From assembly GCF_041886205.1 (NCBI RefSeq), contig NZ_CP169029.1: a stretch of 64,000 bases of DNA; one strand, written 5' to 3'. Origin of the DNA: Escherichia coli. GTDB lineage: Bacteria > Pseudomonadota > Gammaproteobacteria > Enterobacterales > Enterobacteriaceae. This document shows, in pieces, positions 53,682 through 53,786 of the stretch. The notes under the pieces are model-generated. The model was not told the DNA's origin and did no database searches. It saw nothing but the letters and a program-made list of their open reading frames with translations. Within the stretch, counting starts at the first letter, position 1; every line of letters starts with the position of its first letter. Made by a program: the position numbers and the translations under genes.

Positions 53682-53786
53682 AAAAAAAAGCCCATCGTGG
53701 GAGATGGGCAAAGACTACACACAGCAATTCGTTGTTTCACTCAGGGGATTTCCATGCTTATAAATCAATATGTTGATTTATAACCG
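53682..53786 (-). ncRNA. rprA: RprA small RNA (RpoS translational activator), about 105 nt
   Basis: Reverse complement ACGGTTATAAATCAACATATTGATTTATAAGCATGGAAATCCCCTGAGTGAAACAACGAATTGCTGTGTGTAGTCTTTGCCCATCTCCCACGATGGGCTTTTTTT matches RprA from memory, including its terminator. Confidence 0.85.

Follow-up and report, generated by a model that had tools for sequence, protein, structure and literature searches.

RprA and RydB are known small RNAs of Escherichia coli, and both are standard entries in the catalogue of its sRNAs. RprA is induced by the Rcs envelope-stress phosphorelay and, together with Hfq, pairs with the leader of the rpoS mRNA, opens an inhibitory hairpin and raises the translation of RpoS. 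The region through which RprA pairs with the rpoS leader is reportedly that of Majdalani et al. 2002. RydB, which also carries the names tpe7 and IS082, was discovered about 25 years ago. In a Salmonella Hfq co-immunoprecipitation, RydB stood at 2.5-fold, with 4 versus 10 reads (PMC2515195), and in a plasmid screen RcsB is reported to activate rydB (PMC11230228, preprint). Deletion of rydB in strain UTI89 is reported to give persister and H2O2 phenotypes (preprint), and RydB on a multicopy plasmid is stated, in a passage that cites the finding at second hand, to lower rpoS expression.

The window (the whole stretch of 64,000 nt of E. coli DNA that was analysed) very probably holds these two known small RNA genes, independently transcribed and at their usual chromosomal places, with rydB as a self-contained gene. 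A scan of the whole window with Rfam at gathering thresholds revealed a match to RprA (RF00034) at 53787..53680 on the minus strand, with 118.5 bits against a threshold of 70 and model positions 1-108 of 108 covered. The match to RydB (RF00118) on the plus strand covers model positions 1-61 of 61, with an E-value of 9e-18. Both matches are beyond chance, and the Rfam scan that a preliminary description of this DNA had proposed as a check placed both RNAs above their gathering thresholds.

Alignment against MG1655 placed K-12 rprA (b4431, 1770372-1770477) at window positions 53787..53682 and K-12 rydB (b4430, 1764713-1764780, 68 nt) at 59379-59446. The window carries the same genes as K-12 in reverse orientation, the K-12 order being sufA, rydB, ydiH, menI, ydiJ, ydiK, rprA and ydiL. 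The ydiH-sufA intergenic region is identical to that of MG1655 at 547 of 547 bases, and each of the two loci is found in more than 5,400 of 5,426 complete E. coli genomes. RefSeq genomes label an 'antisense sRNA RprA' between ydiK and ydiL; though rprA is labelled, the rydB position is unannotated in the PGAP-annotated E. coli RefSeq genomes. As two known sRNA genes, both identical to those of K-12, they make up an ordinary finding. The features of the rprA locus are the following.

53682..53787, minus strand: rprA gene, 106 nt, identical to K-12 b4431
53682..53709, minus strand: rprA intrinsic terminator, stem-loop at 53709-53690 (GCCCATC-TCCCAC-GATGGGC), then T8 at 53689-53682
53722..53756, minus strand: RprA nt 32-65, complementary to the rpoS leader in RNAduplex
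53794..53836, minus strand: rprA promoter region, with the -10 element TACTAT at 53799-53794, ending 7 nt before the start

The terminator scan found a stem of 7 pairs, 5 of them G-C, and a minimum-free-energy fold gives the same stem. Upstream of the gene, reading of the alignment located TGAGACGAATCTGA at 53836-53823 on the minus strand, centred near -43 of rprA, which we take to be RcsB-box-like. With RprA nt 29-66 and positions -135..-85 of the K-12 rpoS leader as input, RNAduplex paired RprA nt 32-65 with leader positions -127..-93 at -24.2 kcal/mol; this is presumably the location of the experimentally known activating interaction. The likeness to RprA extends over the full-length RF00034 model, the K-12 gene (100% identical), the place between ydiK and ydiL, the terminator and the complementarity to the rpoS leader, and the only differences from MG1655 in the ydiK-ydiL intergenic region are two flanking SNPs, both outside the gene. 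Judged by its sequence, rprA is intact, with no departure from the textbook RNA, and would yield a 106-nt RprA that acts by the established Rcs-induced, Hfq-assisted opening of the rpoS leader. The preliminary description had reported an essentially exact match including the terminator, which is borne out by the Rfam score, the identity to K-12 and the terminator scan; the span it gave, 53682-53786, marks the right locus but falls one nucleotide short, lacking the 5' A at 53787, and does not give the minus strand.

The window has several further features, listed here with the Rfam scores where these apply.

12369-12445, minus strand: tRNA-Val(GAC) gene, in the ydhQ-ydhR-ydhS-mdtK neighbourhood
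12450-12526, minus strand: second tRNA-Val(GAC) gene, in the same neighbourhood
21118-21508: STnc550, 396 bits, above threshold
40425-40549: pheST phenylalanine leader, 75 bits, above threshold
44389-44547: STnc540, 67 bits, above threshold

At 11720-12526, an IS3-family element (ALIL frameshift pseudoknot, 120 bits) adjoins the two tRNA-Val(GAC) genes, which presumably lie elsewhere than expected if the K-12 map were simply reversed. The arrangement of IS3 and tRNA-Val within 9000-15000 is found in only 10 of 5,426 E. coli genomes, and a match to HPnc0260 at 12245-12407, which overlaps a tRNA gene, is probably spurious. The distance from the ihfA-btuC intergenic region, where STnc540 lies, to rprA is about 9 kb here compared to about 24.6 kb in K-12. 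Over 44000-54000, which only 3 genomes cover to at least 80%, the best-matching genome has an annotated transposase of the IS5 family. The shorter distance and the IS5 transposase suggest that roughly 15 kb has been lost from this stretch in association with an IS element.

The second RNA gene had been put forward in the preliminary description as an unnamed candidate between ydiH and sufA; its RF00118 score, its position in K-12 and the identity of the whole intergenic region establish it as rydB. The likeness to RydB (RF00118; K-12 b4430) covers the full-length model, the 100% identical intergenic region and the place between ydiH and sufA. The boundaries differ, in that the K-12 annotation corresponds to 59379-59446 (68 nt), whereas Rfam and Term-seq agree on 59391-59451 (61 nt). 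The features of rydB are as follows.

59375..59383, plus strand: predicted rydB promoter, extended -10 TG-a-GATTAT
59391..59451, plus strand: rydB Rfam match, RF00118, 81.6 bits against a threshold of 50
59391..59451, plus strand: mature RydB RNA, 61 nt, from Rfam, our covariance model R1, covariation and K-12 Term-seq
59391-59395/59440-59444, plus strand: RydB stem P1
59399-59407, plus strand: RydB junction AAGAGCUAA
59408-59410/59416, 59418-59419, plus strand: RydB stem P2, short
59421-59437, plus strand: RydB stem P3, with an A.G mismatch and the loop AUAAG
59445-59451, plus strand: RydB 3' tail, 7 nt
59447..59491, plus strand: rydB hairpin (59447-59483) and U-rich tract (59481-59491)

RydB occupies one place per chromosome in E. 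coli, a blastn search with the 61-nt core at E-values up to 10 having found no second copy. Within the window, R1, which was built from 42 diverse RydB cores, gives a single copy with 66.5 bits. A permissive E-value Rfam scan of 59330-59520 found rydB only, in addition to generic hairpin matches on the terminator.

The 5' end annotated for rydB in K-12 (59379) falls within the predicted extended -10 element. From the position of this element, transcription would most likely start at about 59389-59391, where P1 and the Rfam model both begin. The sequence that spans the -10 of rydB, TGAGATTATTCTTA (59375-59388), is identical to the rprA sequence TGAGACGAATCTGA at 10 of 14 positions. An RcsB box at this place would overlap the rydB -10, unlike the candidate of rprA, which lies near -43.

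At the other end of the RNA, K-12 Term-seq data were compared with the model, and the register of the table was set by the tRNA genes aspU and aspV, with their annotated ends as we take them to be. In the table (supplementary file 1 of Adams et al. 2021, PMC7815308), where the listed position is the 51st base of the printed sequence, the sole "primary" 3' end of rydB is 1764708 on the minus strand in all three conditions. Its average counts in the three growth conditions are 2.17, 4.14 and 2.79 million, compared to 0.18 million for lpp and 3.5 million for the tRNA aspV (PMC7815308). MG1655 position 1764708 corresponds to window position 59451 (...GGGGUAGAAACC-3'), which is the 3' edge of the Rfam model. 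Both this end and the very high counts agree with a stable 61-nt RydB.

The hairpin that follows has 17 stacked positions with one C.A mismatch, a UCG loop and a CCC/GGG base, and continues into UUUUCUUAUUU; because of the single C.A mismatch, a strict terminator scan missed it. Across Escherichia, Citrobacter and Salmonella, its lower stem (AACCCUUAAG/CUUAAGGGUU) does not vary, and its upper stem shows compensating changes. The 3' end at 59451 falls 7 nt past P1 and 4 nt into the hairpin on its 5' side, with 12 bp left before the loop. Since the dominant 3' end lies within the 5' arm, the hairpin probably belongs to a precursor as its terminator and is trimmed off, so that mature RydB lacks it. 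Exonucleases that stall at P1 from the 3' side could presumably account for the 7-nt tail, or a cut of the RNase III type for the distance of 12 bp. Altogether, we propose that rydB is composed of an extended -10 promoter (59375-59383), a 61-nt core (59391-59451) and a terminator hairpin (59447-59491). Transcription would begin at or next to P1 and stop at the hairpin, which would then be removed to leave a 61-nt RNA, stable and very abundant, in which 7 nt follow P1.

An alternative is that the second RNA is a single primary sRNA of about 107 nt that ends and works at the intrinsic terminator, over 59380-59486, the span given in the preliminary description. The hairpin and the U tract are real, on the plus strand as described, and are conserved with compensating changes; in addition, rydB of Salmonella is annotated at 105 nt (PMC2515195), and RepRanger assigns rydB a rho-independent terminator (PMC12306157). 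However, K-12 Term-seq places the 3' end at 59451 in three conditions, and its tables have no rydB-labelled 3' end at the U tract, which fast removal of the hairpin would also fit. The Rfam family likewise stops at 59451, and position 59380 lies some 10 nt before the RNA, within the -10 box that we predict, so that the 107-nt span begins within the promoter and includes a hairpin missing from the abundant RNA. We therefore regard a functional RNA of this length as unlikely, and keep to the 61-nt RydB in what follows.

The RydB family was surveyed with the 18-nt P3 sequence in one genome per species, which gave at least 120 loci (labelled L002-L121; loci on plasmids are labelled L124-L126 and those on viral contigs L127-L186). 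Among the loci listed, about 15 are chance matches inside genes of unrelated phyla; the remaining ones are in Enterobacterales, have a complete RydB core and score above the threshold of the Rfam rydB model. R1 matched all Enterobacterales copies, at 52-83 bits. Among the matches listed, two or three copies at different loci of one genome are found in Pantoea, Erwinia, Rouxiella, Raoultella, Enterobacter and others, and a copy before sufA is found in Escherichia, Citrobacter and some Salmonella. The intergenic regions that hold chromosomal copies are many and unrelated. The copy of Atlantibacter lies between yebY and pphA, adjoining sdsR/ryeA, and a Pantoea copy is located just upstream of pphA, whereas those of Rouxiella and Kosakonia lie before osmC and between convergent genes, respectively. 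Further copies reside on megaplasmids of Rahnella and Pantoea and on one Klebsiella IncF plasmid.

A -10-like hexamer ends 3-11 nt before P1 in 91 of 126 distinct copies, whereas a control window placed farther upstream has one in 19 of 126. Of 139 copies, 100 are followed by a terminator-like hairpin no more than 90 nt away, compared to 8 of 139 after shuffling. RydB copies thus look like self-contained genes.

A degenerate form is also present on mobile elements. Using blastn, a partial match to RydB of 22/23 nt was found on 55 plasmid records, which are 48-kb phage-plasmids of E. coli. The degenerate copy in these phage-plasmids (L122, 1468-1535; 33 bits, E = 8e-7) has an identical P3, with AGAGCUGG in place of AGAGCUAA. 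It has a tRNA gene on one side and, directly after it, the start codon of a gene for an MT-A70 methyltransferase; the 3' strand of its P1 overlaps with what is likely the ribosome-binding site of that gene. A degenerate RydB-like element is also found in the Yersinia phages vB_YpM_39, vB_YpM_41 and vB_YpM_44.

In viral contigs, the RydB core is present in 61 copies on 60 contigs. P3 is fixed by the search pattern in the genome scan; the scan of viral contigs was therefore run with the P3 interior free, and all 61 of its 61 matches are true RydB copies, 57 of which read AGAUAAGCG and four AGACAAGCG. The near-invariance of the P3 loop and of the A.G mismatch is thus genuine and not imposed by a search pattern. 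Downstream of 44 of the 61 copies, homologues of a holin and/or an endolysin are encoded on the same strand, with 160-340 nt usually separating the core from the start of the holin gene. Upstream, 20 of the 61 have a Q antiterminator gene, from three unrelated Q families (phrog_753, phrog_127 and phrog_79), and other copies have a DNA methyltransferase gene; in one group the order is Q, tRNA-Gly, tRNA-Asn, the RydB-like element and holin. None of the isolated phage genomes in INPHARED / GenBank carries the RydB element, and, in the literature searched, no paper linked rydB to prophages or holins.

On one viral contig (L130), an extended -10 and a terminator belong to the RydB-like unit itself, which lies downstream of two other promoter/terminator units. 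Between Q and the RydB-like unit (4430-4770), the first of these has TTGACA at about 4433 and a terminator at 4519-4548, and the second has TATAAT at about 4602 and a terminator at 4743-4764. By their sequences, the former is a candidate for PR'-tR' and the latter a candidate for a further sRNA of about 150 nt. With its own -10 and terminator downstream of a PR'-tR'-like unit, the RydB-like element is a separate small gene in the leader and not the PR' transcript. A second contig (L170) carries two divergent RydB-like cores in tandem, at 9530-9572 and 9709-9751, about 180 nt apart, and their P1 sequences differ (UUCAA/UUGAA versus GCCCC/GGGGC).

The phage copies resemble lambda 6S RNA and StxS of Shiga-toxin phages (PMC7547250), which also arise in the late leader, between Q and holin. 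Each of the phage RydB copies is followed by a terminator, and RydB is similarly abundant. StxS is processed and acts on rpoS (PMC7547250), and RydB is also reported, in the second-hand citation given above, to affect rpoS. However, neither lambda 6S RNA nor StxS has a sequence or Rfam relationship to RydB. Moreover, StxS binds Hfq, which RydB does weakly in Salmonella, and E. coli rydB lies outside any prophage, unlike lambda 6S RNA and StxS. On a speculative reading, the phage copies would be self-contained, highly expressed units heading the lysis/late operon, between Q (or a DNA methyltransferase) and holin, and that the almost invariant P3 would bind a conserved host or phage factor.

The position of these copies also raises the alternative that RydB is a cis-acting leader (an attenuator, a riboswitch or an antiterminator-like element) that controls read-through of the hairpin into sufABCDSE or into phage lysis genes. 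Such a role would suit the layout of promoter, conserved three-stem element, terminator and genes, the lack of a U-tract 3' end in K-12 Term-seq, the placement of 44 of the 61 phage copies just before holin or endolysin on the same strand and the overlap of the degenerate copy with the ribosome-binding region of the MT-A70 methyltransferase gene in the 48-kb phage-plasmids. By contrast, the genes downstream of chromosomal copies are unrelated and often convergent, including sufA, pphA, osmC, LysR regulators and an opposite-strand dehydrogenase. In the window, rydB lies about 280 nt before sufA (start codon 59773) and matches no riboswitch or leader family in Rfam. Furthermore, sufA has a promoter of its own, which we take to be controlled by Fur, OxyR and IscR, and a Fur-box-like sequence, GATAATCATTATC, is visible in the ydiH-sufA alignment. 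Read-through of an RNA as abundant as RydB would make suf constitutive, contrary to its known behaviour, which also argues against a leader. We consider control in cis to be quite improbable.

Covariation supports a structure of three stems for the RydB core. As MAFFT misregisters P1 and P2 between subtypes, the copies were re-aligned with the covariance model. In this alignment, which is fitted to R1 and thereby favours the modelled structure, all five of the five P1 pairs change on both sides, with 93.6% of cells paired, and six of the seven P2 pairs do so. For the whole structure, in the same R1-fitted alignment, 86.5% of cells are paired, compared to 33-47% with the partners slid by 1-3 columns, and the covariation score is 0.202, compared to 0.03-0.07 in the slid controls; none of 500 shuffles attained the observed values. 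Copies of the E. coli type are shorter by one base in this part, and three P2 columns look unpaired in them as a result. For the base of P2, (C)RCC/G(A)GYG is a better description than the GCU/AGU pairing of Rfam, in that CACC always occurs with GAGUG and GAGCG always with CGCC. In addition, the junction AGAGCUAA is nearly invariant across RydB copies.

Three known folds were compared with this core and rejected. Reading of the alignment did not find the core motifs of the hammerhead ribozyme, as we take them to be, in the conserved junctions. A tRNA-like 3' end is discounted by the sequence 3' of P1, which is unconserved and without CCA, and the likeness of E. coli RydB to loop E of 5S rRNA fails across the family.

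It is very hard to credit that the conservation is due to an opposite-strand small protein, possibly a type I toxin-like peptide: the only ORF over rydB does lie on the minus strand (35 aa, 59397..59504), and Sib/Ibs is a multi-copy sRNA family with opposite-strand peptides, but the spacing from AGAGCUAA to GAGYG is 8, 10, 13, 14, 15 or 18 nt, differences that are not multiples of three and thus exclude coding on either strand, the compensating changes in P1 and P2 are unexpected for a coding sequence, and Rfam treats the family as an RNA.

As to how RydB works, our best guess, to which we give about an even chance, is that it acts in trans via the P3 hairpin and the junction, binding a conserved host protein or RNA. 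The invariant parts are constant across hosts, plasmids and phages, among which target mRNAs would differ, and a conserved protein or stable RNA is favoured for this reason. Classical Hfq-dependent pairing with mRNAs appears less likely. The effects reported on rpoS, on persisters and on H2O2 survival, and the activation by RcsB, do not favour one of these modes over another. Lower rpoS expression from multicopy RydB could point to base pairing, but direct pairing with the rpoS leader was rejected, as the restricted segments did no better than shuffles: for the conserved single-stranded segments of RydB against the rpoS leader, 36, 21 and 190 of 200 shuffles were at least as good. RNAduplex in unrestricted form was uninformative, giving full-length duplexes and z = -0.44 for the positive control RprA. 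P3 of RydB (CGGAGAUAAGCGC, 59422-59434) pairs at -15.7 kcal/mol with ACGCCUAUCUCCA of the K-12 rpoS leader (at about -440, inside nlpD), which is not significant, since 21 of 200 shuffles are equal.

For E. coli, rydB as bounded in K-12 and RefSeq (68 nt) differs from the accumulating RNA (61 nt), and automated RefSeq annotation leaves the gene out. Its 3'-end signal is among the strongest noticed in the E. coli Term-seq tables. The sole part with some novelty is the wider RydB family and its location before phage lysis genes. The family and its place in phages are directly observed. On this basis, we tentatively suggest, as one possible and speculative functional reading, that E. coli rydB may be a chromosomal, possibly domesticated member of a mobile family of three-stem RNAs of about 60 nt, with its main home in temperate phages of Enterobacterales, whose P3 would bind a conserved factor and link the control of lysogeny or lysis with RpoS stress physiology; no report of such a link came up in the literature searched. 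The covarying three-stem fold, the almost invariant hairpin and the repeated place upstream of phage lysis genes provide handles on the partner and the role of RydB.
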